Origin: Deltaproteobacteria bacterium
GTDB taxonomy: Bacteria > Myxococcota_A > Polyangia > Polyangiales > Houyiibacteriaceae
Direction of reading: 5' to 3'
Assembly: GCA_034670305.1 (NCBI GenBank)
Contig: JAXMNT010000020.1
Span: 16,188 to 80,187 of the forward strand
Length of the DNA: 64,000 nt
Positions 32,396-52,998 of the stretch are shown here, piece by piece. The position numbers and the translations under genes were made by a program. Each line of letters opens with the position of its first letter. The stretch's first letter is position 1. The notes below the pieces were generated by a model that was not told the DNA's origin, searched no databases, and worked only from the letters and a program-made list of their open reading frames with translations.

Positions 32396-33016
32396 CTAGC
32401 GCCGCACGCAGTCTCCGGTGAACGTTCGGCGCGTCCCGCCCTCCACCATCTCGAAGTCGGTCACTTGGAGATCGCTCAAGTCGCGTGGCCCGATCAATTC
32501 GTCTGCACCCGCGTGGGCGGTGAGCGCGATCTGTCCGGCGTCCGCGAGGATCATGCCGTAGCGCTGGAGCCCGCGGGCGACCGTCCGCGCCGCGTCGTTC
32601 GGAAGCGACTCGAGCGGGTAGTCTGCGCGCAGCCGAAGCCGCGCGCCGTATGGGGGCGCCTCCGCGTCGCCGCCGGTCGCACCGGTACTGTGGGTGGCGG
32701 GCGCGACGTAGACGCGGTTTCGGATGCGCGCGTTCGGGAGAATGAAGCGGATGGCGTGGGCGATCTCGCCGGCCTCCAGCTCTTCCCGGGTGAAGAGCAG
32801 GGGCGTGATCGGCAGACCGGCCGCGTCGGCGCTCGTGCAGTCGACGCCGCGGCCCTCGTCGCCGTAGTCGCGGCTCAGATCCCACACCGCGAGGCAGCCG
32901 CCGCGGAACGTGTCGCGAATGTCCGCGCGCCACATCTCGTACAAGCGCTCGGCGGGACCATCGGCGTCGGCCTCTGCATCGGCTTCGGCCTCGGCATCCG
33001 TTTTGGCTTCCACCAC
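32396..33016 (-). pseudogene. Probably 5'-truncated conserved hypothetical protein
   Basis: Conserved-looking SADAAGLPI...HAIRF...PYGARLRL...LQRYGMILAD preceded only by an Ala/Glu/Asp microsatellite. Confidence 0.45.
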
Positions 33017-33054
33017 ATCGGGACGTGCCCGGCTGGGTTTGTTAGCGTGCGGGC

Positions 33055-33654
33055 ATGAGTCGCAGTTCGGATGGGTGGCGTGTGAATCGATGGGCCTTCC
33101 TCGTGTGCCTCGCAGGCATCGGGATCACGGGGTGCACGGGCCCCGCCGACTCGGACAGCGCCGAGGACCCGAACGAAGGCGGCAGCGAAGCGGAGCTCGA
33201 GGGACCGAGCCGCGCAGACCGAGAGACCGAGTTCAACGTGGACCCGCCCCCCTCGAACGAGGATCCGAGCGAACCGCGACTCGAACTCTCTCGCAGCGAC
33301 GATCCCTGGGGCAACGACGGCCAGGGCGAATGGGTGCGCGCCACCGCACCGATGCGCTTCGATGTGCGTCAGGCCGACGGCTGGCCCGGCCGGGCGCTCG
33401 ACCCGGTGCTCCACGTCGGGGACCTGCGCCTGACCAAGTACGACTTCATCGGCATCGACGTGCTTCGGTTCGTGCTCGCGGACGTGGCGGTGGTCCCGTC
33501 GGGTGCGCCGGTCGCGCTGCAATGGGGCGACGACGCGACCACGCGCGTGGAACTGTCCGACGCGATGACGGTGCCGCAAGCCCCGCCCGAACCGGACCCC
33601 GTCGCGCCCACCGCCCCGGTCCGCAACCAAACCACCGGGACCATGGCGCCATGA
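33055..33654 (+). CDS. Hypothetical lipoprotein
   Basis: TAGCGT-N6-ATG start; lipobox ITGC. Confidence 0.65.
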   Translation: MSRSSDGWRVNRWAFLVCLAGIGITGCTGPADSDSAEDPNEGGSEAELEGPSRADRETEFNVDPPPSNEDPSEPRLELSRSDDPWGNDGQGEWVRATAPMRFDVRQADGWPGRALDPVLHVGDLRLTKYDFIGIDVLRFVLADVAVVPSGAPVALQWGDDATTRVELSDAMTVPQAPPEPDPVAPTAPVRNQTTGTMAP

Positions 33655-36218
33655 GCCGGTTCACGCTCTGCGTCGCGATGGCGTCGTGTCTTGGGCTCAT
33701 CGCATGCGGCGACGACGACACCCCGCCCATCGAATGTGGCGAGACCGACCTGCCGGTGATCGCCTGCGAAGACGTCGAGCTCGGGTGCATCGACGAAGCT
33801 GGCGTCCCGGTCCCGCCCCTGTCCGCGATGGCGAACGCCTGTGGAGGGGGCGCGGTCGAGGTCACCTGCTCGACCGAGGCGGAGACCATCCTGCCCGGCA
33901 CCACCGAGGCCACCTGCGTCGCGCGCAACACCGCGGGCGAAGCACGCTGCACCATGGAGATTCGCGCCAGCGCGCCTGGTCGCCTGGCGTGCAGCGACAC
34001 GATCCGGACGGCGTGTGCAGCGGAGACGACTTCGGTCGACGTGCCCGCCCCGGTCGTCGACGAAGCGTGCACCGACCTCGGTGGCGACTTGGTCAGCGAC
34101 GCACCCGCCGCGTTCCCGGTCGGCACCACCACCGTGACCTTCTCCGCACCGGCCGGACCGAGCTGCAGCGTGGAGGTCGTGGTCGCGGACGACGCCCCGC
34201 CGGTGCTCACCTGTCCGGCAGACGCCACGCTCGTGGCGACCGCCCCCGACACCGACCTCCCCCTCCCCGCCGCAAGCGCCACCGATGGGTGCGACCCGGC
34301 GCCGTCGGTCACGCACGACTTCGAAGGCGCGGTCATCGAGCGCGGCGTCACCGAAGTCACGTACACCGCCACCGACGCCAGCGGTCACGCGACCTCGTGC
34401 AGCAGCACGTTCGAACGCCGCGACGCCTACAGCCCGTTCCTTCGGCTGCTGAGCGCGACCTGGAACGTGGCGGCCGAGAGCACCGACCTGACCATCGGCT
34501 GGGACACGCCGAACAGCGGGGCCGGTGGCGACACGAGCGGTTACGCGATCGAGCGGGGCGCGTCGGCCGATGGACCCTGGAGCCGCCTCGCAGAGGTCGG
34601 TCGACGGGTGCGCACCTACCTCGATGCCGACGTGACGATCGCACACCCGCACTACCGGGTGGTCGCACTCGCCGACGAACTCGACGGCGGGCCCAGCAAC
34701 GTGGTGCAGGCCCACCGCATCGAAGGGGACACCTACGATGTGCGCGACCAGACCGTGCCCACGATCCCGTTCGCCACCACGCTCTACGGCGCCGTGCGTT
34801 ACCCGGCGGACCTCGGCGCGGGGCCCTACCCGCTCGTCGTCCTGATGCATGGCAACCATGGTATCTGCCGGCGCACGCCCACCGACGATCGCGACGCCTG
34901 CGCCGACTCGCGGGACCACGAGTGTCCTCAGCCCGGCTGGTTCACCACCCCCAACGCCGAAGGGCTCGCCTACCTCGCCGAGACCGTCGCCGCGATGGGC
35001 TACGTCGCGGTCTCGATCAGCGGCAACGCCGTCAACTGCCGGGACACCTGGATCGGGGAACGTGCGCAGCTCATCCGCAGCCACCTCGACCGCTGGCGCC
35101 GGTACGCCAGCTCGGGCGCAGCGCCGTTCTCGACCCGGTTCGCGGGCGCGGTGGATCTCTCGCGGGTGGCGCTCTTCGGCCACTCGCGGGGCGGCGAAGC
35201 GGTCGCGACCGTGCCCTCCGTGCTGCGCAGCACACCCGTCGCCGGCGTGTCGCTCGCCTCGGTGTTCTCGCTCGCACCGACCGACTACGACATGCCCACC
35301 CCGACCGACGTGCCCTACGCCGTGCTGCTTCCGGGCTGCGATGGAGACGTTCGGTTTCTTGTCGGCACCGACATCTACGACCGGGTCGTCGCGGCCGACC
35401 ACCCCGGGCCGCACGCCCAGCTTCTGTTCGTCGGCGCCAACCACAACTTCTTCAGCACCGAGTGGCGCATCGACGACAACGACGGCTCGGCCTGCGATCC
35501 TTCGCTCGAAGTCGGCGCGCCGGCACAACGCGGCGCGCTCGAGGGCGTCTTCGGCAGCTGGCTCGCCACCACCGTTCCGTCCGGCGGCACATCGATCGCG
35601 GCCGAGCCGTTCATGCGCAACGAGAACGACCCACCCGAGAGCATCGCGACCTGGGCCGGCACCGAGCTCGACTGGCGGTGGTCCTTCGTTGCAGACCGGC
35701 AACGCATCGACGAGTTCGAAGGCGCCGGCACGCCGGACCGCAACCTGCTCGGGGGCGCGAACACCTTCGAAGGGTTCGACGAAGCGAGCCGCTGCTACGA
35801 CAACGCCTGCGGGACGCGTTACCCGCACGAGAAGGGTGCAATGCACCTCGACTGGTCGACCGGCCGCCCGATCGCGTCCTTCGAACTCGGCGGGCTCGAC
35901 ACCACCGGCCGCGACTATGTGTCGATGCGCGTCGTCTCCCGCCGCTCGGGGCTCAACGCCGGACTCGACGAACAACGGTTCCTCGTCCGGCTCGTCGACA
36001 GCGCTGGTGGACGCGCCCAGGTCCGGTCCCAGTCGTGGGCGTACCTCCCACACCTCTTCCCGGCCCGCGACCCGCTCGAGATCTTCCAGACCCTCCGCAT
36101 CCCCACCGCGGCTTTCGACGTCGACCTGGCCTCGGTGGACCGGCTCGAAGTCGAGATGGGCGTCGGCGGGTTCACCGAAGGTTCCCTCCTGGTCAGCGAC
36201 CTGGCGCTGTCGGACTGA
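33651..36218 (+). CDS. Lipoprotein with HYR/Ig-like repeats and an alpha/beta-hydrolase domain
   Basis: ATGA overlap; lipobox LIAC; FPVGTTTVTF and VTYTATDASG (HYR); MHGNH, GHSRGG, DGDV, GANHNFF. Confidence 0.8.
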   Translation: MSRFTLCVAMASCLGLIACGDDDTPPIECGETDLPVIACEDVELGCIDEAGVPVPPLSAMANACGGGAVEVTCSTEAETILPGTTEATCVARNTAGEARCTMEIRASAPGRLACSDTIRTACAAETTSVDVPAPVVDEACTDLGGDLVSDAPAAFPVGTTTVTFSAPAGPSCSVEVVVADDAPPVLTCPADATLVATAPDTDLPLPAASATDGCDPAPSVTHDFEGAVIERGVTEVTYTATDASGHATSCSSTFERRDAYSPFLRLLSATWNVAAESTDLTIGWDTPNSGAGGDTSGYAIERGASADGPWSRLAEVGRRVRTYLDADVTIAHPHYRVVALADELDGGPSNVVQAHRIEGDTYDVRDQTVPTIPFATTLYGAVRYPADLGAGPYPLVVLMHGNHGICRRTPTDDRDACADSRDHECPQPGWFTTPNAEGLAYLAETVAAMGYVAVSISGNAVNCRDTWIGERAQLIRSHLDRWRRYASSGAAPFSTRFAGAVDLSRVALFGHSRGGEAVATVPSVLRSTPVAGVSLASVFSLAPTDYDMPTPTDVPYAVLLPGCDGDVRFLVGTDIYDRVVAADHPGPHAQLLFVGANHNFFSTEWRIDDNDGSACDPSLEVGAPAQRGALEGVFGSWLATTVPSGGTSIAAEPFMRNENDPPESIATWAGTELDWRWSFVADRQRIDEFEGAGTPDRNLLGGANTFEGFDEASRCYDNACGTRYPHEKGAMHLDWSTGRPIASFELGGLDTTGRDYVSMRVVSRRSGLNAGLDEQRFLVRLVDSAGGRAQVRSQSWAYLPHLFPARDPLEIFQTLRIPTAAFDVDLASVDRLEVEMGVGGFTEGSLLVSDLALSD

Positions 36219-36800: not shown

Positions 36801-39800
36801 ATGGCGGATCCCGAACAGCCAGACGAGACCAAGCTCGAGCGGACGAAGCCGTCGAGCATCGACCGGGCGAAACGGAGCGAAGCGGAGCGGGCGGTACCCG
36901 AGGAGGAAGCGGGCCCCGACGCGACTGTCGATCAGCCGCGCATCCCTCCGGGCAAGCAGCAACCCGGCATGCTCGTCTCCGAGCGGGTCCGGCTCGACCG
37001 GCCACTCGGCAGCGGCGGCATGGCCGACGTGTGGGTGGCCGAACATCTGACCCTGGGCACTTCGGTCGCGGTGAAGTTCTTGCGCGCGACCCACGACGAG
37101 TCGTTGCGCGACCGGTTCACCCGGGAAGCGCAACTCGCCGCCCGCATCGATCACCCCCACGCAGTGCGGGTCTTCGACCACGGCGTCACGAGCGACGGCA
37201 CGCCGTACATGGTGATGGAGTACGTCGAAGGCGAGTCGCTCGCCCAGCGGATCCGACGCATGGGCGCGCTGCCGCCCGCCGAGGTCGGCCGACTCGTCGA
37301 CCAGGTCGGCCAAGTCCTTCGCGACGCGCACGAGCGCGGCATCATCCACCGCGACATCAAACCCCACAACATCATGGTGCTCGAGCGCGAGCCGCTCTAC
37401 TGCAAGGTGCTCGACTTCGGGCTCGCGAAGACGCTCACCGAAGATGAGACGCTGACGCAGGCGGGCTGGGTACTCGGCACGCCCGCGTACATGGCGCCCG
37501 AACAGCTGGTCGACGCCAAACCACCCACGAAGAAGAGCGATGCGTGGGGGCTGAGCATCGTTGCGTACGAAGCACTGGTTGGACACCGTCCGTTCCGCGG
37601 ACACCACCAGGCGGCCCTCGGCCTCGGCATGCTCGTCCAGCGTTTCGATCCGGTCAGCCAGGCCCGCCCCGGGCTGCCAGAGGCACTCGACGAGTGGTTC
37701 CTCAAAGCGCTGGCCGTGGATCCCGACCACCGCTTCCCGACCGTCGAAGCGCTCACCCGCACGTTCCTGGCCGCGCTCGAAGACGCGAGCGACCAACCCC
37801 GTTCCCGGCTCGGCGCGGATGGCCGGATCCGGATCCCGAACCGGCTCTACGGCCGGGCCACCGAGATCCAGACCGTCTCGGATGCCTACGCTCGGGTGGC
37901 CGCGGGCGAATCGAGGCTCGTGCTCTTCGAAGGGTACGCGGGGGTCGGCAAGACCGCGTTGGCCGAAGAAGCCCGCCGCCTCTGCGCCGCCCAGGGCGCG
38001 ATTTTCGTCGACGGAAAGTTCGATCAGTTCAACCGCGGCGCCCCGTACGAGAGCTTGCTGCAGGCGCTTGGCAAACTGGTCCGTTACATCGGCACCCAGA
38101 GCCACAGTTCGCTGGAAGGGTGGCAGGCGCGTCTGCGCGAGGCGCTCGGCGAGGTCGGCCATGTGCTGACCGATCTGATCCCGGAGCTCGAAGACATCAT
38201 CGGACGGCAGAGCGAACTGCTCGAGACCTCGCCGGCCGAAGCACGCAACCGCTTCCAGAATGCGGTCGCCCGGTTGATGCGCGGGGTCGCGACCGCGGAA
38301 CGCCCGTTGGTCCTCTTCATGGACGACCTCCAGTGGGCCGACCTGCCCACGATCGATCTTCTGGGAAGCCTCGCGCTCAGTCCCGACGAACATCCGCACG
38401 TGCTGGTGCTGGGCGCGTACCGCAGCAACGAGGTCAAAGAAGGGCACCCGCTCGACAGCTGCATCGCGGGGTTGCGCCAGGCCGACGCCGCCCTGGACGA
38501 AGTGTCGCTCGGTCCGCTCGGGGAAGATGCCGTGCTCGAGCTGCTGACGGACGCGCTCGGAAGCGTGCCAGGCCGGGTTCGACTCGCGGTCCTCTGCCAC
38601 GAGAAGACCCAGGGCAATCCGTTCTTCCTCAAGCGGTTCCTCGAAGCCCTCCACGAAGAGCGGCTGCTCGAGTTCGACGAGTCGCGCGACGCCTGGACCT
38701 GGCAACAGAGCAGGATCCACTCACGGCCGGTCGGAGAAGACGTCGTCGCGTTCATCGCGGCCGAGATGGGCCGACTGCCTGAGTCGGCGCGCGAGGCACT
38801 GGCGCTGGCCGCGTGCATCGGGGGTCAGTTCGATCTGGGCACACTCTCGCATCTGATGAAGATCGATCGCCGACGCACCCTCGAGTGCCTGCGGCCCGTG
38901 CTGGCCGCGGACTTCATTCTTCCAGCGTCCGACGAAGTCTTCTCCGCGACCGAAGACGTCGGCCCACGGCGGGTCGCGTTCCGATTCGCACACGACCGCA
39001 TCCAGCAGGCGGCGCACTCACTCTTCTCCACCGACCGCGCGGCGGAAGTGCATCTCGCCGTGGCCCATTTCCTCCTCGAGCACCTCGACGAGAGCGAACG
39101 GGAAGCGCGGCTCTTCGAGCTCGTCGAGCACCTCAACCAGAGCGCCGACATCCGGCCCGCCCTCGTCGGCGACACGCCGCAGCTCCGCTCGCTCAACCTC
39201 ACCGCCGCCCGTCGGGCGACCCGGTCGGCCGCGTTCGAGCCCGCGGGTGCGTACTACGAGAAGGCGCGCGCGCTCGTCGACAGCGAGCACTGGGAGAGCG
39301 ACTACGAACAAGCGCTGGCGATTCACGTCGAAGGCGCGCGCGCGGCGTACTTCAACGGCGACCGCGAGCGCATGAACGAGCTCGTCGACGCCGCCGTGGC
39401 CCACGCGCGCACCACGCTCGATGCGGTCGAAGCGCGCGAGGTGAAGATCCACGCGCTGATCGCAGAACAACGGTTCGACGAGGCGGTCTCACTCGCGCTC
39501 GAGGTGCTCGGGCAGCTGGGCATCGACCTTCCGAGAACGCCAGGGCCGGACGACGTCGGGGCGGTGGTGGGCGCGACGATCGGCGCGCTGCAGGCCACCT
39601 CCGCCGAGAAGATCAGTGCGCTGCCAGACGCGTCCGACCCGACCGTCGTCGCCGCCCAGCGCATCAAGCAGGGCGTCATGTCTGCGGCGTACCTGACCGC
39701 CCCGAATCTCCTGCCGCTCCTCACCTGCGACATCGTGCAGTCGACCCTCCGCGACGGGGTGGCGCGGCAGTCCGCGTACGGCTTCGCGGTCTTCGGCATG

Positions 39801-40841
39801 GTCATGAACGCGGCCGGGCTGATCGACGTCTCCTACGAGAACGGGAAGATCGCCATGGCACTGCTGGAACGCAGCCCCGATCGGTCGATGATGGCGAAGA
39901 CCCAGCACATCGTGCGGGCGCACCTGAACCCCTTCGTCGAACCAATCACCGAGGTCGTGGAACACGAGCGGGCGGTGTTTCAGCTCGGCATGGACACCGG
40001 CGACCTCGAGTACGCGGCCTGGGCACTGCACAACATCGTTGCGTACGGGTTCTACTCGGGCATGCCGCTCGAGGAGTTGCGGCAGGTGGACGAGCGGAGC
40101 CGCACGATCCTCGAGCGCCACAAACAACTTCCGGCGCTCGCCTGCACCAAGCCGTACAGCCAGACCATCACGAACCTCGGTGGCGATGGCACCGTCGCGC
40201 AGTCCACCCAGCTGCGCGGTCTGCACTACGACGAGACCGAGCACATGGCCGAGTTGGTCTCGCTCGGCTTCCGAGGCGCGGCCTACATCTTGACGGTCGC
40301 CCGCACCTTCATCCGCTTCGTCTTTCGAGACATCGAGGGGGCGCTTCGGGCCGCCGACTCCGGCGCCGAGTACGCGGATGGTGCGATCGCCACCTACCAC
40401 GCGGTGTGGTGGAACCAGTACCGAGCCTTGTCCGCCCTCGGGACGCTCGAAACCGCCAAAGAAGACGACCTCTTGATCGTCTCGGCGAAGGCCAACCTCG
40501 CAGCGCTCGAGAAGTGGTGCGCCTTCTCTCCGATCAACCACACCCATCGGGTCGCACTGGTGCAGGCCGAACTCGCACGCGCGCTCGGACAAGACACCGA
40601 GGCGGTCGGTCACTACGAGGTCGCCATTCGCCACGCCGCCGAGGCCGGCTTCTTACACGAAGAAGCCCTGGCCAACGAACTCGCGGGACGCTTCTTCGTG
40701 TCTCGAGACAGCCGGACACAGGCGCGCGCGTTCCTGACCGAAGCACTCGACGCGTACGCCGAGTGGGGCGCCGCCGCCAAAGCCGAGCACCTCGAGATCG
40801 AGTTCACCGAAGCACTGCGCCGCCGCCGCCGCGGCAGCTGA
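36801..40841 (+). CDS. Ser/Thr protein kinase fused to an AAA/STAND ATPase and a TPR-like helical region
   Basis: LGSGGMADV, HRDIKPHN, DFG, YMAPE; Walker A GYAGVGKT; Walker B LFMDDLQWAD; GNPFF; FAHDRIQQAA. Confidence 0.92.
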   Translation: MADPEQPDETKLERTKPSSIDRAKRSEAERAVPEEEAGPDATVDQPRIPPGKQQPGMLVSERVRLDRPLGSGGMADVWVAEHLTLGTSVAVKFLRATHDESLRDRFTREAQLAARIDHPHAVRVFDHGVTSDGTPYMVMEYVEGESLAQRIRRMGALPPAEVGRLVDQVGQVLRDAHERGIIHRDIKPHNIMVLEREPLYCKVLDFGLAKTLTEDETLTQAGWVLGTPAYMAPEQLVDAKPPTKKSDAWGLSIVAYEALVGHRPFRGHHQAALGLGMLVQRFDPVSQARPGLPEALDEWFLKALAVDPDHRFPTVEALTRTFLAALEDASDQPRSRLGADGRIRIPNRLYGRATEIQTVSDAYARVAAGESRLVLFEGYAGVGKTALAEEARRLCAAQGAIFVDGKFDQFNRGAPYESLLQALGKLVRYIGTQSHSSLEGWQARLREALGEVGHVLTDLIPELEDIIGRQSELLETSPAEARNRFQNAVARLMRGVATAERPLVLFMDDLQWADLPTIDLLGSLALSPDEHPHVLVLGAYRSNEVKEGHPLDSCIAGLRQADAALDEVSLGPLGEDAVLELLTDALGSVPGRVRLAVLCHEKTQGNPFFLKRFLEALHEERLLEFDESRDAWTWQQSRIHSRPVGEDVVAFIAAEMGRLPESAREALALAACIGGQFDLGTLSHLMKIDRRRTLECLRPVLAADFILPASDEVFSATEDVGPRRVAFRFAHDRIQQAAHSLFSTDRAAEVHLAVAHFLLEHLDESEREARLFELVEHLNQSADIRPALVGDTPQLRSLNLTAARRATRSAAFEPAGAYYEKARALVDSEHWESDYEQALAIHVEGARAAYFNGDRERMNELVDAAVAHARTTLDAVEAREVKIHALIAEQRFDEAVSLALEVLGQLGIDLPRTPGPDDVGAVVGATIGALQATSAEKISALPDASDPTVVAAQRIKQGVMSAAYLTAPNLLPLLTCDIVQSTLRDGVARQSAYGFAVFGMVMNAAGLIDVSYENGKIAMALLERSPDRSMMAKTQHIVRAHLNPFVEPITEVVEHERAVFQLGMDTGDLEYAAWALHNIVAYGFYSGMPLEELRQVDERSRTILERHKQLPALACTKPYSQTITNLGGDGTVAQSTQLRGLHYDETEHMAELVSLGFRGAAYILTVARTFIRFVFRDIEGALRAADSGAEYADGAIATYHAVWWNQYRALSALGTLETAKEDDLLIVSAKANLAALEKWCAFSPINHTHRVALVQAELARALGQDTEAVGHYEVAIRHAAEAGFLHEEALANELAGRFFVSRDSRTQARAFLTEALDAYAEWGAAAKAEHLEIEFTEALRRRRRGS

Positions 40842-40894
40842 AGGTCCGGAACTTCCGGACCCGTGCGGGACGGGTTCGCGGGTACCCTCTGCGG

Positions 40895-42640
40895 ATGAAA
40901 ACGGCGCTTCCCCAGAACGACTCCAACGCGGCCGCGCGCAGCGACCGACTTGCGAAGAAACAGCAGACCTATCGATTCGCGTACGACTGGCCGCCCGAGG
41001 TCGCCACGTCGGCGGAGCTGCCGAAGGCCGACAACTACGGCGCGCTCTACATCCTCGAGTCCCTCAAGACCTACGCCGCGGTGGGCGTCAACATCGCCGC
41101 GATGGCGATCAAGGGCAACGAAGCGAAGAACCTCATCTCGCTCCTCGAAGCGCGCTTTCGCGACGCGGGGGCCGATGAGTTGCACAAGCTGATCTTCACC
41201 ACCCCGAAGATGGTCTCGGAGTCGTTGCCTGCGCGCTGGCCCACCTCCTGGCGAGAGTACGAAGCGTTCTTCGCCACCTGGCCCACGCCTCCGATCGTCG
41301 GCTTCTACGAGGACCCCGACCCCACCCGCCTCAACCGCGCCTTTGCGTGGCAGCGGGTGGCGGGCGCCAACCCGATGGTGCTCGAACGCTGCGACGCGGT
41401 GCCTCCGCACCTGGCGGTCGACGACGCCATGTACACCCGCGTGATGAAGGGCGATTCGATCGCGGCCGCCATCGCGGAGGAGCGGCTCTACCTCGCGGAC
41501 TACGTCGCGCTCGAAGGCATTCCCACCGGCACCAAAGAGGACTTGCCCAGGTACCTGTGTGCACCGATGGCGCTCTTCGCAGTCGAGCCCATCACCAAGT
41601 CGCTCTACCCCGTCGCCATCCAACTCGGGCAGACCCCGGACGCCGCCTGTTTCACCCCCAACGACGGCTGGCACTGGCGCATGGCGATGCAGTTCGTGCA
41701 GATCGCGGACGCGAACGTACACGAAGGCATCTACCACCTCGGCCGGACCCACATGGTCATGGAAGCGGTGAAGCTGTGCATGGAACGACAGCTCGACGAC
41801 GGCCATCCGCTGCACCGGCTCCTGGTCGCGCACGTGGAGACAACCCTCGCGATCAACCACTCCGCCAAGACCTCGCTCATCGCGCCGGGCGGCACCGTCG
41901 ACCAGTGTTTCGCGCCCACGATCGAAGCGTTCGCGGGCGTCGTGAAGAAGTCGCTCGACACCTACCCGATCGCGACCGCGACGCCGGAGCACGATCTGCA
42001 AGCGCGCGGCCTGACCAACACCGAAGTCCTCGAACACCCCTACCGGGACGACGTCCGGATCGTGCACGCCGCGGTCGAGGCCTTCGTCTCCGAGTACATC
42101 GACCTCTACTACGCGACCGACGCCGATGTCTCGGGCGACGCGGAGCTCCAAGCATTCGTGCGTGAGCTCGGCGCAACCGACGGCGGCCGGCTGGTCGGCA
42201 TGCCGACGGTCCAGACCGTCGCCGACGTGGAGTCGCTCATCACCAAGTTCGTCTTCATCGCGGGTCCCGGCCACTCGGCCGTCAACTTCGCGCAGTTCCC
42301 CTTCATGGGCTTCGTGTCGAACATGGTGGGCTCGGCGTTCCAGCCGGTGCCCACGGCGGACACCCCGAACGAAGAGGCGGAACTGACCAAACTCCTGCCG
42401 CCGCTGCGCATCGCGATGGAGGGCGTGACGATGGTCTACTTCCTTTCGAACATGCGCCCCTCGAAGCTCGGGCACTACGCGCCCTTCCACTTCCGCGACC
42501 ACAAGGTGAACAAGGTGGTGCACACGTTCCAGAAGGCGCTCGAGCGGGTCGAGGCGACCATCGACGAACGCGACCCGCGGCGCCTGATCTCCTATCCCTT
42601 CTTGAAGCCCTCGCTCATCCTCCAGTCCATCGCCATCTAG
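40895..42640 (+). CDS. Lipoxygenase 1 (canonical Fe ligands)
   Basis: LPQND N-terminus; QRVAGANP; HEGIYHLGRTH; HSAVNFAQ; C-terminal SIAI. Confidence 0.92.
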   Translation: MKTALPQNDSNAAARSDRLAKKQQTYRFAYDWPPEVATSAELPKADNYGALYILESLKTYAAVGVNIAAMAIKGNEAKNLISLLEARFRDAGADELHKLIFTTPKMVSESLPARWPTSWREYEAFFATWPTPPIVGFYEDPDPTRLNRAFAWQRVAGANPMVLERCDAVPPHLAVDDAMYTRVMKGDSIAAAIAEERLYLADYVALEGIPTGTKEDLPRYLCAPMALFAVEPITKSLYPVAIQLGQTPDAACFTPNDGWHWRMAMQFVQIADANVHEGIYHLGRTHMVMEAVKLCMERQLDDGHPLHRLLVAHVETTLAINHSAKTSLIAPGGTVDQCFAPTIEAFAGVVKKSLDTYPIATATPEHDLQARGLTNTEVLEHPYRDDVRIVHAAVEAFVSEYIDLYYATDADVSGDAELQAFVRELGATDGGRLVGMPTVQTVADVESLITKFVFIAGPGHSAVNFAQFPFMGFVSNMVGSAFQPVPTADTPNEEAELTKLLPPLRIAMEGVTMVYFLSNMRPSKLGHYAPFHFRDHKVNKVVHTFQKALERVEATIDERDPRRLISYPFLKPSLILQSIAI

Positions 42641-42730
42641 CGGCAGCCGACGCGCACGTCGTCACGACGCGCCGCCGGCACTGCTTCCGACATCCTCACG
42701 CGGCATCGCGCCGCATCGAAGAGAGAGCCC

Positions 42731-44476
42731 ATGACCAGCCCGACCCTTCCGCAGAACGACCCCGCCATCGACGAGCGGAAGGCCCAGCTGGCCAATGCCC
42801 GCGTGTCGTACCAGTTCGACTTCAGCTACCAGGAGATCGTCTCCGCGAAAAAGGTGCCGCTGCGGGAGAAGTCCGATCCGCACTACTGGCTCGCCCTCGC
42901 GGAGGTCACCGGCGAACTCAAAGCCAACCAACTCGCGAGCCGGTCGCTCGAAGAGAACGTCGACGCGATCGGTGAGAAGTTCGTGCAGGGTCTGGCGGAT
43001 GCCTTCGCGAAACTCGCGCCCGGTGAGATCGCAGAGCGGCTGAAGAAGGAGACGCGCGCCTCCCCTCCGCCCGAGACCGACCGGAGCCCCGAGAGCTACG
43101 ACAAGATGTACGCGCGGATCGCGCCGCCTTCGGTGTCCGCGCGCTGGGCAGAGGACGAGATCTTCGCGTGGCAGGCGCTCGCCGGCTGCAACCCGATCAT
43201 GATCCACCGGTTCGCGGGCATGCCGCACTTCGGCGTGACCGCCGCCCACTTCGACAGCGCAATGAAAGCGCTGAAGGTCGAGGGCGCCGGGACCTACGAG
43301 AGCGCGCTGAAGGAGGGGCGGCTCTTCGTCGCCGACTACCAGATCCTCGACCACATCACGCCGGGGGCCTACGAAGGCGCGCCGAAGTTCATCTTCGCCC
43401 CGCTCGCACTCTACGTGTCGCTCCCCGGCGGTCGGTTCCTGCCGGTCGCGATCCAGTGCGGACAGACCCCGGAAGCCGGCATCTTCACACCGGCCGATGG
43501 CATGAGCTGGCGCATGGCCCGCACCGTCGTCACGAGCGCGGACGGAAACTTCCAAGGCATCATCTCGCACTTCGCTTGGTGCCACGAAGTGATGGAGTCG
43601 GTGATCCTCTCCACCCACCGGCAGCTCGCGGACAACCACCCGCTCCACGTGCTGCTCTCGCCGCATTTCGCGAACACGATGATCACCAACGACATCGCGA
43701 TGACCTCGCTCATCGGACCGAACGGCAACATGGAGCGGTTGCAGAGCGGCACACTCGAGTCTTCGCTGGATCTCGCGAAGCGTTCGATCCGGGAGTTCCG
43801 CCTGCTCGACTCCGCCCCCGCGAAGGACTTCGCGGCGCGCGGCGTCGACGACACCGACGCGCTCGCGGCGTATCCGTTTCGAGACGACAGCCTGCGGTCC
43901 TGGGGACCGTTGCAAGCCTGGGTCCGCGGCTACCTCGAGCTCTATTACACTTCCGACGAACTGGTCGCGGGCGACCACGAACTCGCAGCCTGGGTGGACG
44001 AACTCGGAAGCCACGAAGGCGGCCGACTGCTCGGACTCGAACGGCCGCAGACCTTTGACGCGCTCGTCGATTTCGTCGCGCAGATCATGTTCCGCTGCAC
44101 CGTCTTCCACGCGGCGTTCAACTACACCTCGTACGACTTCTTCGCCTACGCCCCGAACGTCCAGGCCGCCGCGTTCGGACCCGGACCGACCGGCACCGAC
44201 GCCGACACCGTCGAGACCCTTCAAGCGATGTGGCCTCCCTACCAGTCGGCGTACGAAGGCATGCACCTGTTCTACACGATCTTCAAAGTGCAGCTGAACC
44301 GGGTCGGGTACTACCCCGACGGTCACTTCACCGACCCGCGCGTGGCGCCGCTCGAGACCGCCTTGAAGGCCGCGCTCGACGAAGCCGAAGCCGCGATCGC
44401 CAAGGACGACGACAAGCGCATCCTCTCGTACCCGTACCTGATGCCGTCGCGGGTGAGCAACAGCATCCACGTCTGA
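42731..44476 (+). CDS. Lipoxygenase 2 (divergent)
   Basis: [33 protein letters not shown]-terminal SIHV. Confidence 0.88.
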
Positions 44477-44501
44477 CGTAGGGAGTTCGGCGCCTGCCGG
44501 C

Positions 44502-44693
44502 GGCTTCGGCTTCGGCGTCGGCTTCGGCTTCGGCGTCGGCGTCGGCTTCGGCTTCGGCTTCGGCTTCGGTGTCGGCGTCGGCGTCGGCGTCGGCTTCGGC
44601 TTCAGCTTCGGCTTCGGCTTCGGCTTCGGGTTCGGCTTCGGTGTCGGCGTCGGCGTCGGCTTCGGCGTCGGCTTCGGCTTCCGCGTCGGCTTC
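44502..44693. repeat. Hexamer microsatellite (G/T)TCGGC, ~31 units
   Basis: Read directly; lies between convergent genes. Confidence 0.95.
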
Positions 44694-44714: not shown

Positions 44715-45806
44715 TCACGGCAGGGACACACCCGTCCACACCGCGAGCCCGAGGCGGCGCAGACGGACGAAGTTCATCATGTCCGTGTAGAGCGCGAGCG
44801 GCATCATGTGGTCGAGGTACGCGGTGTCCTCTCGGTAGGTCACCGTGGTGCCCGGCCGATCGAAGAACGTGGCGGCCCAGATGTTCAGAACCGCATCCAC
44901 CTCGTGGGGGTAGAGCCGGTGTCCTTCGCTCGCGCGAAAGGGCGTGGCCGGGTCGCGCATCATCACGCACTCGTTGGCCCAGTCGGGCGCGGGGGGCGGC
45001 GCGGTGTCGACGAGGCGTGCCCTCAGTCGGTCTCGGGTGGCGGCCGCAAGCGCGCCCGGCGACTTCTGGTGCGACTCGAGTACGAAGCCCGCGCTTCGAC
45101 CGGCGGGGATCGTCGGCGCGAAGATCACGTAGACGCGACCGCCTTCCCGGTGGGTCAGAAAAACATCGTGCACCGGATGGGTGCTGCGGTTGTGGAGCAC
45201 CAGATGTCGACGACCCGGGCGCCATTCGGGCCCGCGCTCGATCCGGATCGCGACCTGCTCCCGGGTGCTGCCTTCGTAGAAGACGAACCGTTCGCTCTCG
45301 CGTGCCCCGTTGACCCAGAGCGCGTCGAAGCCGCGCAGCTCGTCCACCCAAGGCGTCGATGAGACATGGGGGGTGTGCGTGGCTTCGGGGTGGAGGTTCA
45401 GCCGCTCCCAGGTGAGCTGGGGCGCAGCGCCCGCACGTGGACGTAAGGTGTCGACCTGCGGATACCAGTGGCTCGCACGCCCTTGCCGGAAGCCCACCTC
45501 GATGCCGAGCGGGACGGGTGAGGACATGCTGTTGCGCCCGTAGAAGTGCAGCACCGGCAGCGCACGTTGTCCGCTGTCGGCCGGAAGCGACCGGGCCGGC
45601 GGACCCGCCGCGTTGCCCCCACCGGCCCGTCGATGGAACCAGCCGGGCAAGTTGGCCGTCACCTGAGCGCCCGCGCCGTCGAACGCTTGCACGCCCCACT
45701 CATGGACATCGAGAGGGCTTGCGCACCAGGACTCGGCCTCGGCGTCGCTCGGGGGGGCGACCAGGAACAACAGAACGACCGTGAGCATCGAGAGACTGAA
45801 GCGCAT
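44715..45806 (-). CDS. Secreted hypothetical protein (VHEWG...ERFVFYEG type)
   Basis: Signal peptide; conserved-looking motifs; coding-like composition. Confidence 0.7.
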
Positions 45807-50223: not shown

Positions 50224-52998
50224 ATGCCCTCTTCTTCCGCGCAGTTCGCGTCCGGAGTCTCCGTGGTGCTGTTGCTCGTTGCGTTCTCCTCGAACGCGTC
50301 GGCACAGAACAACACCCCGGAACGCGTGCCGCCGTCCGTCGGGCACGCGCCGGCCGTCGCCTGGCCCGCGGGGGCGCCGGAGGGGCCGCGAGAGGTGGTG
50401 GTCGTGCTCTCGCTCGAGGTCGACGCCGACGGCGTGCTCACGGGCGCCCAAGTGGTGACCGCGCCTCTCCCATCGGTCCTGTTTCGTCGAGCGGCGCTGG
50501 CCCACGTCGCGCAGATCGTGTTCCGCCCGGCGACGGTGGATGGCGTGCCCGTGGCGGCGCGGGTTCAGTACGCAGTGCGGTTCCGGGCGCCAGTGGCGGC
50601 CGACGTGGGGGCTGAGACCGACGCCGAGGCCGACGCCGAAGCCGAGGCCGACTCCGAAGCGGATGGCGAAGCCGACTCCGACGCCGACGCCGACTCCGAT
50701 GCCGAGGCCGATGCCGACTCCGATGCCGATGCCGATGCCGATGCCGGTGCCGATGCCGATGCCGATGCCGATGCCGATGCCGATGCCGATGCCGATGCCG
50801 ATGCCGATGCCGACTCCGACGCCGACTCCGGCTCCGACTCCGACTCCGAAGCTGGTGCCGGTGCCGACTCCGACTCCGACTCCGAAGCCGGTTCGTTCGG
50901 GGCGCGGGGGTGGACGGATCTGGATGTCGTCGAGCGGCCGCCGGCCGCCGCGAGTGAGTCCGACATCCAGCTCACCGCTTTCCGTTCGGTGCCCCGGCGA
51001 TCCGCCGAAGAGAACCTGACGCTCGCGCCTGGGATCGTGCTCGCGAACCATGGCGGCGAAGGCAAAGCGAGCGGCATCTACCTGCGCGGGTTCGATGCCG
51101 GTGAGGGGCAGGACGTGGAGGTGCTCGTCGATGGCATCCCGCTCAACGAACCGAGCAACGCACACCTGCACGGCTACGCCGACAGCCACTTTCTGATCCC
51201 CGAGCTCGTAGAGAGCCTGCGTCTGCTCCCGGGTCCGTTCGACCCGGCGCAAGGGGACTTCGCCCTCGCGGGCACCGTCGAACACCGCCTCGGCGCGGAC
51301 GAACCCGGCCTGCAGATCTTGGGCGGCTACGGATCGTACGCGCGCCGCCGCGCGTTGCTGCTGCTCGCGCAGGACGAACAACGGTTCGTCGGTTTCGAAG
51401 TCCAGTCGGGCGCAGGCTTCGGCATCAACCGACAGCACCGCAACGTGCGGCTGCTCGCGCGGTGGGGCGGCGGCGACGGCCGGCTCAGGTACCACATCAC
51501 CCTCGCGAGCCACGCGCTCCGCTTCGATTCCGCCGGGGTGGTTCGGTCCGACCGCGTGACGGCCCGCGCCCTCCCCTGTGCCTCGGACAGCGACGCCCAG
51601 TTCTTCTGCACGGACGACAACAACCAAGGCGGCTCGGCTTCCCGGCACCTCGTCGCCGCCCACCTGGACTGGCGGCGTCCCGGCCAGCGGTACCGGCAAG
51701 TCGTATGGGCCCAGCTGCGACGCAACCGGTTCCGAGAGAACTTCACCGGCACCCTCTTCGACGAGCGCGGCGATGGGCTCGACGAGCTGACCGACACCGT
51801 CACCGTCGGACTTCGGGGCGACTACGTCACCGACGCACTCGTCCGGCGCGGTCCACTGCGCGGCCTTCGGCAACAGCTGGAGCTTGGCTACCTCGCGCGC
51901 CACGACCGCGGCGAGTCCCGGATGTTTCGGGTGCGCGGCACGGGTGAACCGCATTCGGTGGTGTTCGACGACGACCTCGCGCTCACCCACGTCGCCGCCC
52001 ACGTCACCGGCGTGTTGCGGGTGCCCCGGTTGTCCGTCCGCGCGGGTGCGCGGATCGCAGGGTTCGTCTTCTCCACCGTGGACCACAACCAACCGGAGAT
52101 GGACCGAGTCGGCGAACGACTGCCGGAACAGTCCACCGAAGCGTTCGGCATCGCGTTGCTGCCGAGGATGAGCGCCGCGGTTCACCTGCTCGAGGGGTTC
52201 GACTGGACCACCAGCCTCGGTCTCGGGAGTCGATCCAGCGATGCGCGCGCGCTCAGCGAAGGCGAGTCGGCACCGTTCGCCCGGGCGCGTTCCGTGGAGA
52301 GTGGCTTGTCCCTGCTCCGAACGGTGGGAGACGTGAAGTTGGACGCGCGGGCGGGCGCGTTCTGGACGAACGTCGATCGCGATTTGCTCTTCGACTCCGA
52401 GTTCGGACGCAACGTGCCGCTCGGCGAGACCCAACGGTTCGGCGCGTTCGCGTCGCTCGGGGTTCACCTGGACGATTGGGTGGACCTGCTCGGCAGCTTC
52501 GCGTGGACCGAAGCACACCAGGCGCTCGATGGGGCCGGACCGTTCGATCTCACGAGCGGCCCCCGACTGCCCTTCGTACCCCGCTTCGTTGGACGGCTGG
52601 ACGCCGCGCTTCGCCGCGAAGTCAAAGTGCGCAACGACGGTGTCGTCTTCGGGCTCGCCGCCGGTGCCAGCCTCATCGGTCGGCGCCCGCTGCCGAACGA
52701 GCAGCTGTCTCAGCGCATCTTCGTGGTGGATGCCGCCGGCAGCATGCGCTGGCGCTGGCTCGAACTGGACATCGCGGTCCGCAACCTGCTCGACACGCGC
52801 TACCGCGCGGTCGAGCTGCAGTACGAGTCGCGCTTCGCCGCGGACGACTTCGGTTCGCTGCGCCCGGCCCGCCACTTCGCCGCGGGTCCGCCCCTCGAGG
52901 TCATGACGAGCCTCACCGTGCACCTGGACCTCCAAGCGTTCCGAAGTGTGTCCCAAGAAGACGCGTCCGCGCCGTCGAACCCAAGTGAGACCCCATGA
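50224..52998 (+). CDS. TonB-dependent receptor with an N-terminal TonB_C-like domain and an Asp-Ala tract
   Basis: [11 protein letters not shown]...[11 protein letters not shown] (TonB_C); plug [24 protein letters not shown]; barrel ending VRNLLD. Confidence 0.88.
50614..50889 (+). repeat. In-frame (GCCGAT/TCCGAC)n tract encoding ~90 aa of Asp/Glu-Ala/Ser
   Basis: Read directly. Confidence 0.92.

Follow-up and report, generated by a model that had tools for sequence, protein, structure and literature searches.

Which reaction is carried out by a lipoxygenase (LOX) whose iron site has been remodelled, and why should its gene stand directly behind that of an ordinary LOX? The question is raised by two tandem genes, LOX1 and LOX2, in the 64,000-nucleotide stretch of DNA analysed here (the window). 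The role of LOXs for the bacteria that encode them is largely open, and less than 0.5% of bacterial LOXs have been characterised (PMC13319228). The features of the locus are listed in Table 1.

Table 1. Features of the kinase-LOX1-LOX2 locus (positions in the window).
Feature	Position	Strand	Basis
Ser/Thr kinase - STAND (AAA_16) ATPase - long helical (TPR-like) domain, 1346 aa	36801..40841	+	Pfam
LOX1, canonical single-domain bacterial lipoxygenase, 581 aa, no signal peptide (by inspection)	40895..42640	+	
LOX1 first iron motif: H276-E277, ligands H281 and H286	41720..41752	+	
LOX1 second iron motif: H460, N464, Q467	42272..42295	+	
LOX2, divergent lipoxygenase-like clade B protein, 581 aa, C-terminal Val, no signal peptide	42731..44476	+	
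LOX2 first iron motif: His-Glu replaced by Q275-G276; H280 and H285 retained; C284	43553..43585	+	
LOX2 channel segment: T319 (Ile elsewhere), Coffa A323, L327, clade-typical R336 and Q338	43685..43744	+	
LOX2 second iron motif: clade-typical R455, ligands H460 and N464, Gln replaced by S467	44093..44131	+	

The tandem proposed in the initial annotation is real: both genes are intact and on one strand, their products share 32% identity, and the residues were confirmed one by one. LOX1 and LOX2 match the Pfam Lipoxygenase domain (E 7e-50 and 2.5e-46) and are the only PF00305 matches of the genome, while no NCBIfam model matches either of them. The stop codon of the kinase gene lies 53 bases 5′ of LOX1, and a scan of the locus for promoters and terminators gave nothing better than shuffled sequences. 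A 1275-aa ORF (38813-42640) was rejected as a false extension of LOX1, running in another frame across the kinase gene; homologues begin at the ATG at 40895.

According to the available excerpts of PMC13059375, LOXs bind their metal through three His, an Asn, His or Ser, and the C-terminal carboxylate. Both proteins carry this set, the register being given by ungapped alignment to Cyanothece LOX2 and human 15-LOX-2. LOX1 was described as canonical and is so throughout, in its ligands (H281, H286, H460, N464 and the C-terminal I581), its second sphere (H276-E277, Q467) and its channel (Coffa A324). In LOX2, the ligands H280, H285, H460 and N464 are kept, the C-terminus is V581 and the Coffa residue is A323, but the alignment confirms the reported change of His-Glu to Q275-G276 and of Gln to S467. 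The equivalents of soybean Q495 and Q697 are thus present in LOX1 (E277, Q467) and absent in LOX2 (G276, S467). Soybean mutants of Q495 and Q697 remain active dioxygenases. Second-sphere residues tune the metal potential, as stated in the excerpts of PMC13059375, and the Coffa site steers O2 according to the literature. The Cyanothece LOX2 mutant chains L304V and L304F place L304 on L327 of the window LOX2. By inspection, neither N-terminus contains a hydrophobic stretch, and the alignments of both proteins to the Enhygromyxa and Cyanothece enzymes start at residue 3-4 here and at the very first residues there, in line with the signal peptides being absent as first claimed.

The predicted model of LOX2 (pLDDT 92.6) has no N-terminal beta-barrel, PF00305 being the only domain found. 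Its closest solved structures are Cyanothece CspLOX2 (PDB 5MED) and the Enhygromyxa salina LOX (PDB 8X8F), with which it has the single-domain cytoplasmic LOX fold in common (31-32% identity; TM-score 0.87-0.91 against bacterial LOX structures). These two enzymes carry His-Glu and Gln and hence resemble LOX1.

LOX2 belongs to a family, called here clade B, that comprises 99 of 276 LOX sequences, has an SH-aLRT support of 99 in a 52-row mixture-model tree and is recovered unchanged after removal of the active-site segments. A further 37 members, assigned without use of the second-sphere columns, bring the clade to at least 136. The three His are present in 99/99 and the Asn in 98/99 members, and the ligands are kept in 37/37 of the further set. 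The Q495-equivalent is Gly in 95/99 members (33/37 in the further set), whereas a Gln at the Q697-equivalent is found in 0/99 members vs 169/177 sequences outside the clade (1/37 vs 98/102 in the further set); both residues are lost in 97/99. The Coffa and channel residues are relaxed as well: Ala or Gly occupies the Coffa site in 52/99 members (Ala alone in 51/99) vs 169/177 outside, and in 8/37 vs 96/102 in the further set, roughly half or more of the clade having Thr, Met, Cys or Leu there. The Ala reported at this position stands for both proteins, while the S-stereochemistry predicted from it is weak for LOX2 because the residue is not conserved in its clade. Polar gains typical of the clade are R336, Q338 and R455, and the conserved clade-specific changes all lie in or beside active-site segments. 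Neither the C-terminal Val (73/99 members), put forward as a marker of LOX2, nor the Cys preceding the second His is diagnostic, since both are also seen in Myxococcus-type LOXs. The clade B residue pattern is found in no solved structure among the alignments examined, and the family is apparently unstudied. Its chemistry should differ from that of textbook LOXs under any of the readings weighed below.

The initial annotation proposed to check the phylogeny and co-occurrence of the pair, which turns out to be conserved and co-inherited. A canonical-type LOX lies within 2.5 kb of 55/65 clade B members, on the same strand and directly upstream in 54/55. The STAND kinase adjoins 48/56 of the clusters of canonical LOX and clade B gene vs 4/44 other LOX clusters. 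There are exceptions: three clade B members, L047, L050 and L076, stand by themselves, each with 2.5 kb or more of sequence upstream, and G215 keeps a 54%-identical kinase and zero LOX in 17 kb. Of two further metagenome clusters whose flanks are long enough, L246 has the kinase and L249 lacks it. The gene trees of 46 modules, compared with each other, have 26-30 of 43 splits in common and 21-23 of 24 strong splits compatible, and the three trees agree over myxobacteria, cyanobacteria, an actinobacterium and betaproteobacteria. A phylogenetically independent test of the LOX2-kinase association, with only 7 pairs, gave ~4.7 in the same direction and 0 in the opposite one (median p 0.06). A conserved three-gene unit made of a STAND kinase, a canonical LOX and a remodelled LOX-like protein is therefore well supported.

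LOX2 could be an inactive, decaying duplicate of its neighbour, which the initial annotation had named as a refuting outcome. It has indeed lost several residues that hardly vary among LOXs, and some relatives are frameshifted (L256) or fragmentary (L086, L159). However, the frame of LOX2 is intact, the clade is large with invariant ligands, and dN/dS ranges from 0.09 to 0.45 for LOX2 vs 0.09 to 0.47 for the partner LOX in 12 pairs. LOX2 is thus under purifying selection, which largely refutes decay and leaves it as almost certainly wrong.

A second possibility is that LOX2 is another dioxygenase with a different pocket, the module giving two products or a dihydroperoxide. Such an enzyme might oxygenate another position, take a head-first or esterified substrate, add oxygen to the LOX1 product or use Mn. 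The full ligand set, the Coffa Ala and L327 fit this reading, as does the setting of the metal potential by second-sphere residues (excerpts of PMC13059375), and Q338 and R336, at the predicted bottom of the pocket, could hold a carboxylate or hydroperoxide. The fungal manganese lipoxygenases (PDB 5FNO, 5FX8) resemble LOX2 in V581, the C-terminal Val being a metal ligand there according to the excerpts of PMC13059375. They are distant from LOX2 in sequence (E 1e-14 to 4e-11). The spacing in MnLOX is His-x3-His, which also speaks for a dioxygenase where it occurs in four clade B relatives, and only in these, whereas the window LOX2 has His-x4-His.

Adjacent divergent LOXs are also known from Myxococcus xanthus, where MXAN_1744 and MXAN_1745 (11-LOX, 12-LOX, hepoxilin route) are described in the accessible parts of PMC5760719 and PMC6612559, the former giving both as dioxygenases. 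The Myxococcus-type pair, equated with these two by lengths and source names rather than by accession, is head-to-head whereas the window pair is tandem. Both of its members have Glu/Gln and Gln and score better with the non-B profile, and the 676-aa one falls outside clade B. The window pair was hence rejected as a version of it, given that orientation, second-sphere residues and clade differ. A likely P450 gene, recognised by eye, adjoins the Myxococcus-type pair in the two loci read. That two dioxygenases can stand side by side favours the same for LOX1 and LOX2, but those of Myxococcus retain the very residues that LOX2 has lost, the Coffa site is bulky in about half of clade B or more, and an independent enzyme would have no need of a place right behind another LOX, as seen in 54 of 55 cases. 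A second dioxygenase is thus an unlikely reading, albeit one to be taken seriously.

The reading that we favour, with a probability of about 0.4, is a circuit in which a fatty-acid hydroperoxide formed by LOX1 is converted by LOX2 with no further oxygen added, and the compound that results is sensed by the STAND kinase. In the first step, LOX1 would add O2 to a cytoplasmic polyunsaturated fatty acid, as suggested by its canonical residues and by the pfa1-2-3-type PUFA synthase encoded in the same genome. In the second and least certain step, LOX2, which retains a metal site but no longer has the Gln/Glu network and has lost much of the constraint that hydrophobic residues place on the channel, would take up the hydroperoxide; in the simplest form, ferrous isomerase cycling as in eLOX3 would give an epoxy-alcohol or ketone. 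Bacterial LOXs can perform isomerase cycling under O2 shortage (PMC13319228).

The mammalian 12R-LOX/eLOX3 couple, as far as the excerpts of PMC13059375 describe it, likewise consists of two LOX-fold proteins for which sequential action is proposed, and the iron ligands of the second are intact. The window pair is not orthologous to it and lacks PLAT, the animal two-domain architecture of PLAT and LOX being absent in LOX2, and no linked receptor gene is known in mammals. The dependence on a partner is seen here genomically (55/65), while the hand-over of substrate is only proposed. The initial annotation read the Gln/Glu changes as a sign of eLOX3-type chemistry, but reviews credit restricted O2 access instead, whereas in LOX2 the second sphere and channel are rebuilt. 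The substitutions hence mark a changed site and do not by themselves predict an isomerase. As regards O2 access, the Coffa residue is bulky in many clade B relatives; the window LOX2 itself retains the Coffa Ala and L327, which speaks against an isomerase, as does the dioxygenase activity of the soybean Q495 and Q697 mutants.

The kinase gene product contains Pkinase (66-320) and AAA_16 (348-536) Pfam domains, with the kinase loop, DFG, Walker A and Walker B all intact. It has the architecture of STAND NTPases, i.e., a Walker A/B P-loop followed by helical, winged-helix and repeat sensor domains, and the closest folds to its model are the STAND-TPR protein PH0952, Apaf-1, Avs3 and MalT. In combining a kinase, a P-loop module and a helical sensor domain, it resembles STAND ATPases (PH0952, MalT, Apaf-1) and kinase-AAA_16-GAF-cyclase/His-kinase proteins, for which a literature search found no link to lipoxygenases or oxylipins. 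The genome encodes no second homologue of its STAND-helical region. In the third step of the favoured circuit, as the architecture suggests, binding of the LOX2 product to the helical domain would cause the STAND protein to exchange its nucleotide and oligomerise. The window kinase, in which GAF and cyclase tails are missing, would then signal through Ser/Thr phosphorylation, and relatives whose tail is GAF-cyclase or GAF-HisKinase through a cyclic nucleotide or a His kinase.

LOX2 might also relay the LOX1 hydroperoxide by contact, as a non-turnover sensor or regulatory subunit acting on the STAND kinase or on LOX1, the hydroperoxide oxidising its iron or binding in its pocket. Invariant metal ligands combined with lost catalytic tuning residues, and the linkage of LOX2 to both other genes, would suit such a role. 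It is nevertheless improbable, with the clade-specific changes confined to active-site segments, no obvious new surface in the alignment and no kinase in 8 of the 56 clusters.

The signalling role proposed from the LOX pair alone gains real support from the conserved STAND-kinase neighbour, which lay outside the initial annotation, but the direction is only inferred and linkage does not set it. In the reverse order, the kinase would respond to a cue from outside (stress, prey contact, phage) by activating the LOX pair as an effector of membrane lipid peroxidation or oxylipin release, possibly as a suicide or defence system. Some STAND proteins are immune sensors, Apaf-1 and Avs3 are among the closest folds here, and patchy presence (any LOX in 17/87 genomes of the host's family) together with cross-phylum transfer is typical of conflict systems. 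This order is nonetheless quite unlikely. PADLOC left both LOXs unmatched, and the best 25 of its 33 kinase matches were all confined to the generic kinase domain. A scan of 41 neighbour proteins showed no recurrent defence or mobile genes. Moreover, the unit is stable across deep branches, and the output tail varies (cyclase, His kinase, AAA_35 or none) while the LOX pair and helical domain are constant, which fits the LOXs as input.

With the LOXs as input, the unit provides bacterial LOX products with a candidate receptor and output, and a widespread multidomain STAND kinase family with a candidate class of ligand. A wider form of the favoured circuit, held only tentatively, is a hydroperoxide-converting LOX family independent of animal eLOX3 and coupled to an NLR-like STAND receptor with interchangeable outputs, the unit having been transferred whole between myxobacteria, cyanobacteria, actinobacteria and betaproteobacteria. 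The unit is experimentally tractable, with three soluble proteins, cyclase-tailed versions offering a simple cAMP readout and two cultured cyanobacterial carriers (L084, L091). The kinase loop carries a Lys in all 11 complete tail-less forms, the window copy included, and an Asn or Ser in 22/22 long-tailed forms where the loop was located, a sequence pattern consistent with a switch of output between the forms.

In the window, three genes make up a conserved and co-inherited unit that is under selection and whose second enzyme is rebuilt. Two lipoxygenase (LOX) genes, LOX1 and LOX2, lie on one strand exactly where the initial annotation had placed them, are separated by 90 bases, encode proteins with 32% identity and are the sole two Pfam Lipoxygenase matches in the whole genome. 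A third gene, missed by that annotation and added here, encodes a Ser/Thr kinase fused to a STAND ATPase. All the substitutions proposed for LOX2 were confirmed: Q275-G276 replaces His-Glu, S467 replaces Gln and the C-terminus is Val. The alignment also bears out retention of the metal ligands H280, H285, H460 and N464, and the predicted LOX2 model (pLDDT 92.6) gives TM-scores of 0.87-0.91 against bacterial LOX structures. Certain positions in the LOX1 and LOX2 motifs are taken here to be the equivalents of soybean Q495, Q697, L546 and L754. To set the residue register, Cyanothece LOX2 together with its L304 mutants, and human 15-LOX-2, served as alignment references; the soybean residue names follow a figure legend (PMC12058684).

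Features of the three-gene module and its surroundings in the window
Feature	Position	Strand	Remarks
Flanking ORF	32910-36218	+	1102 aa; no Pfam match at 1e-5
Ser/Thr kinase + AAA_16 STAND ATPase + long helical domain	36801-40841	+	1346 aa; stop 53 bases before LOX1
LOX1	40895-42640	+	581 aa; Pfam Lipoxygenase match
LOX2	42731-44476	+	581 aa; Pfam Lipoxygenase match; clade B
Hexamer array CGGCTT x32	44501-44693		directly 3' of LOX2
Flanking ORF	44715-45806	-	363 aa; no Pfam match at 1e-5
Hexamer array, CCGATG-type	50618-50890		within large ORF

The LOX pool comprised 276 distinct sequences of at least 400 residues, shorter fragments being excluded, drawn from a protein search, a genome scan and 80 regions excised from genomes that carry a LOX, out of 301 genomes in the host's order (the tally of LOX-bearing genomes counts one unpublished genome, G123, of which all other claims are independent). 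LOX2 falls within a single clade of 99 sequences, clade B (FastTree support 1.00; SH-aLRT 99 in a 52-row subsample), whose membership is unchanged once active-site segments are dropped from the tree. The three His ligands are present in 99/99 members and the Asn in 98/99. In contrast, the Q495 position is Gly in 95/99, with Glu/Gln in 160/177 sequences outside, and the Q697 position is never Gln (0/99 versus 169/177). The channel Ile (7/99 versus 156/177), the L754-equivalent Leu (18/99 versus 150/177) and Ala/Gly at the O2-steering Coffa site (52/99 versus 169/177) are likewise depleted, and polar gains are typical (R336 in 69/99, Q338 in 74/99, R455 in 86/99). Because sampling favours LOX2 relatives, these proportions are no census. 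A profile search added 139 proteins of at least 400 residues, 37 of which were placed in clade B by a tree without active-site columns. These retain the ligands (37/37) and mostly Gly at the Q495 site (33/37), with Gln at the Q697 site in 1/37 versus 98/102 of the other new proteins and Coffa Ala/Gly in 8/37 versus 96/102. Outside clade B, six sequences (one truncated) score without both second-sphere residues. Five form a separate small clade. A second small LOX clade (L252:2249-8762, L169, L168; P0052, P0058, P0074) lost both independently; its member at L252 sits in a three-LOX cluster close to a STAND kinase. One protein, P0198 (1009 aa), carries its LOX domain at the C-terminus plus about 345 additional residues at the N-terminus.

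The check on phylogeny and co-occurrence suggested for the pair came out in its favour, with a non-B LOX within 2.5 kb of 55/65 clade-B genes with DNA context, immediately 5' and on the same strand in 54 of those 55. Six of the ten exceptions have less than 600 bases of contig upstream, two of them with a LOX fragment there. At L054 and L081 (the latter one of the six) a LOX lies on the far side of the kinase, and the clade-B genes of L047, L050 and L076 stand alone in genomes that carry other LOX genes. In 29 metagenome loci, upstream DNA was available for four clade-B genes not sampled before (L246, L248, L249, L256), and all four lie 3' of a canonical LOX. Eleven loci are three-LOX clusters (L051, L055, L057-L060, L067, L068, L072, L073, L075), the middle gene coming from a third small clade of 16 sequences, some with Ala/Gln at the Q495 position and the L754 position occupied by Gln, which suggests a putative three-step route.

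Kinase linkage was counted in 100 of 124 LOX clusters, those with at least 1.5 kb on both flanks, at a frame-to-gene distance of at most 700 bases. A kinase homologue adjoins 48/56 clusters with a clade-B gene versus 4/44 without one. Its placement varies (5', 3' or opposite strand) and the remaining neighbours are not constant; neither ORF flanking the module in the window was found conserved beside other modules. A caveat comes from the independent-pairs test of LOX2-kinase linkage: among its 7 pairs, about 4.7 were concordant and 0 opposite (median p 0.06). Within the host's family, a close orthologue (at least 54%) occurs in 9/88 genomes and adjoins a LOX pair in 8/9; the one in G215 (L239, G215:C14) has no LOX within 17 kb. 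The STAND-helical region has no other homologue in the host genome, and the nearest folds to the predicted model are PH0952, Apaf-1, Avs3 and MalT. Kinase tails comprise GAF with an adenylate/guanylate cyclase, GAF with a His kinase, GAF with AAA_35, or none, as in the window. Among 46 LOX-linked kinases examined, the catalytic-loop Lys is present in all 11 complete tail-less forms and replaced by Asn/Ser in 22/22 tailed forms with the loop found, so that the latter are possible pseudokinases. AAA_35 terminates at least two cyanobacterial LOX-linked kinases, and a stand-alone AAA_35 gene lies 5' of the LOX pair in cyanobacteria (L056:1992-3395, L084:3381-4718, L091:5582-6877).

In 46 complete modules, shared splits among the LOX1, LOX2 and kinase trees numbered 30, 26 and 29 of 43, and 23, 22 and 21 of 24 strong splits were compatible, an agreement between three gene trees with non-independent kin and with the species tree not factored in. 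In all three trees, cyanobacterial and actinobacterial copies cluster together and betaproteobacterial copies sit within myxobacterial ones; these shared cross-phylum groupings suggest that the genes were transferred jointly. The three genes very probably form a functional unit. Decay of LOX2 is hardly credible and was rejected, since dN/dS (Nei-Gojobori, 12 close pairs chosen by hand) ranges from 0.09 to 0.45 in clade B and from 0.09 to 0.47 in partner LOXs. Against two relatives, the window's LOX2 gives 0.22 and 0.26 and LOX1 0.25 and 0.21, with dS near saturation.

The preferred reading, to which we give a probability of roughly 40%, is that LOX1 would make a fatty-acid hydroperoxide, LOX2 would convert it, and the STAND protein would sense the product. 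On inspection, LOX1 and LOX2 lack an export signal, as the initial annotation had claimed, and their substrate is therefore likely to be PUFA made by the cell itself. The host genome encodes a three-gene pfa-type PUFA synthase (G000:C1, L240:2592-19289; PfaD and PfaA families above cut-off, KS and FabA domains in the third gene) and five desaturase-family matches, and PfaA is above cut-off in 3/4 checked relatives from its family. A non-oxygenating conversion by LOX2 is favoured because residues placing substrate and O2 vary freely while metal ligands are fixed, because clade B gains are polar, and because an oxygenase partner is almost always present. It is rather unlikely that LOX2 is instead a second dioxygenase or a Mn enzyme. 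Two points speak against a non-oxygenating conversion. Soybean Q495 and Q697 mutants stay active. In addition, the consulted part of the review literature ascribes isomerase cycling of mammalian eLOX3 to O2 exclusion rather than to these Gln residues (PMC13059375); LOX2 may act like eLOX3, yet lies outside its family. The sequence does not show LOX2 to be a Mn enzyme. His-x3-His is the metal-ligand spacing of fungal manganese lipoxygenases, and if there is a bacterial Mn enzyme, the four clade B proteins with this spacing, one residue shorter (L090, L092, L095, L098), are its strongest candidates. A LOX2 acting as a non-turnover sensor is unlikely. Control of the LOX pair as an effector by the kinase is unlikely: it is the output tail that is exchanged between modules, which favours the LOXs as input. 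Both this reading and the LOX2 chemistry are argued from pattern. That the module is a new kind of lipid-messenger circuit is somewhat doubtful.

The observation is real, conserved and larger than first noted. Clade B, which forms part of a LOX-LOX-STAND kinase module, is apparently a lipoxygenase subfamily not described before, and may already be present as a sequence cluster among the nine of Chrisnasari 2022. A literature search, with most subscription papers outside it, found no link of lipoxygenase to STAND/NTPase or kinase gene clusters, and the word lipoxygenase is absent from the main text of two survey papers on NTP-dependent conflict systems in bacteria. The adjacent myxobacterial genes MXAN_1744 and MXAN_1745 encode an 11-LOX and a 12-LOX (PMC5760719), which show 19.7% identity. 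Head-to-head LOX pairs, labelled by source as Myxococcus or Corallococcus lipoxygenase-family proteins, are the common arrangement in 101 genomes around Cystobacter. In ten Myxococcus-type loci, both members retain Glu/Gln and Gln and score better with the non-B profile, one type having a C-terminal Val (9/10) and the other the Cys that precedes the second His. This system differs from LOX1-LOX2 in its orientation, intact second-sphere residues and non-B membership, and the window's pair was rejected as an instance of it. At L224 and L225, a Myxococcus-type head-to-head pair is followed by a P450-like gene, recognised by eye.
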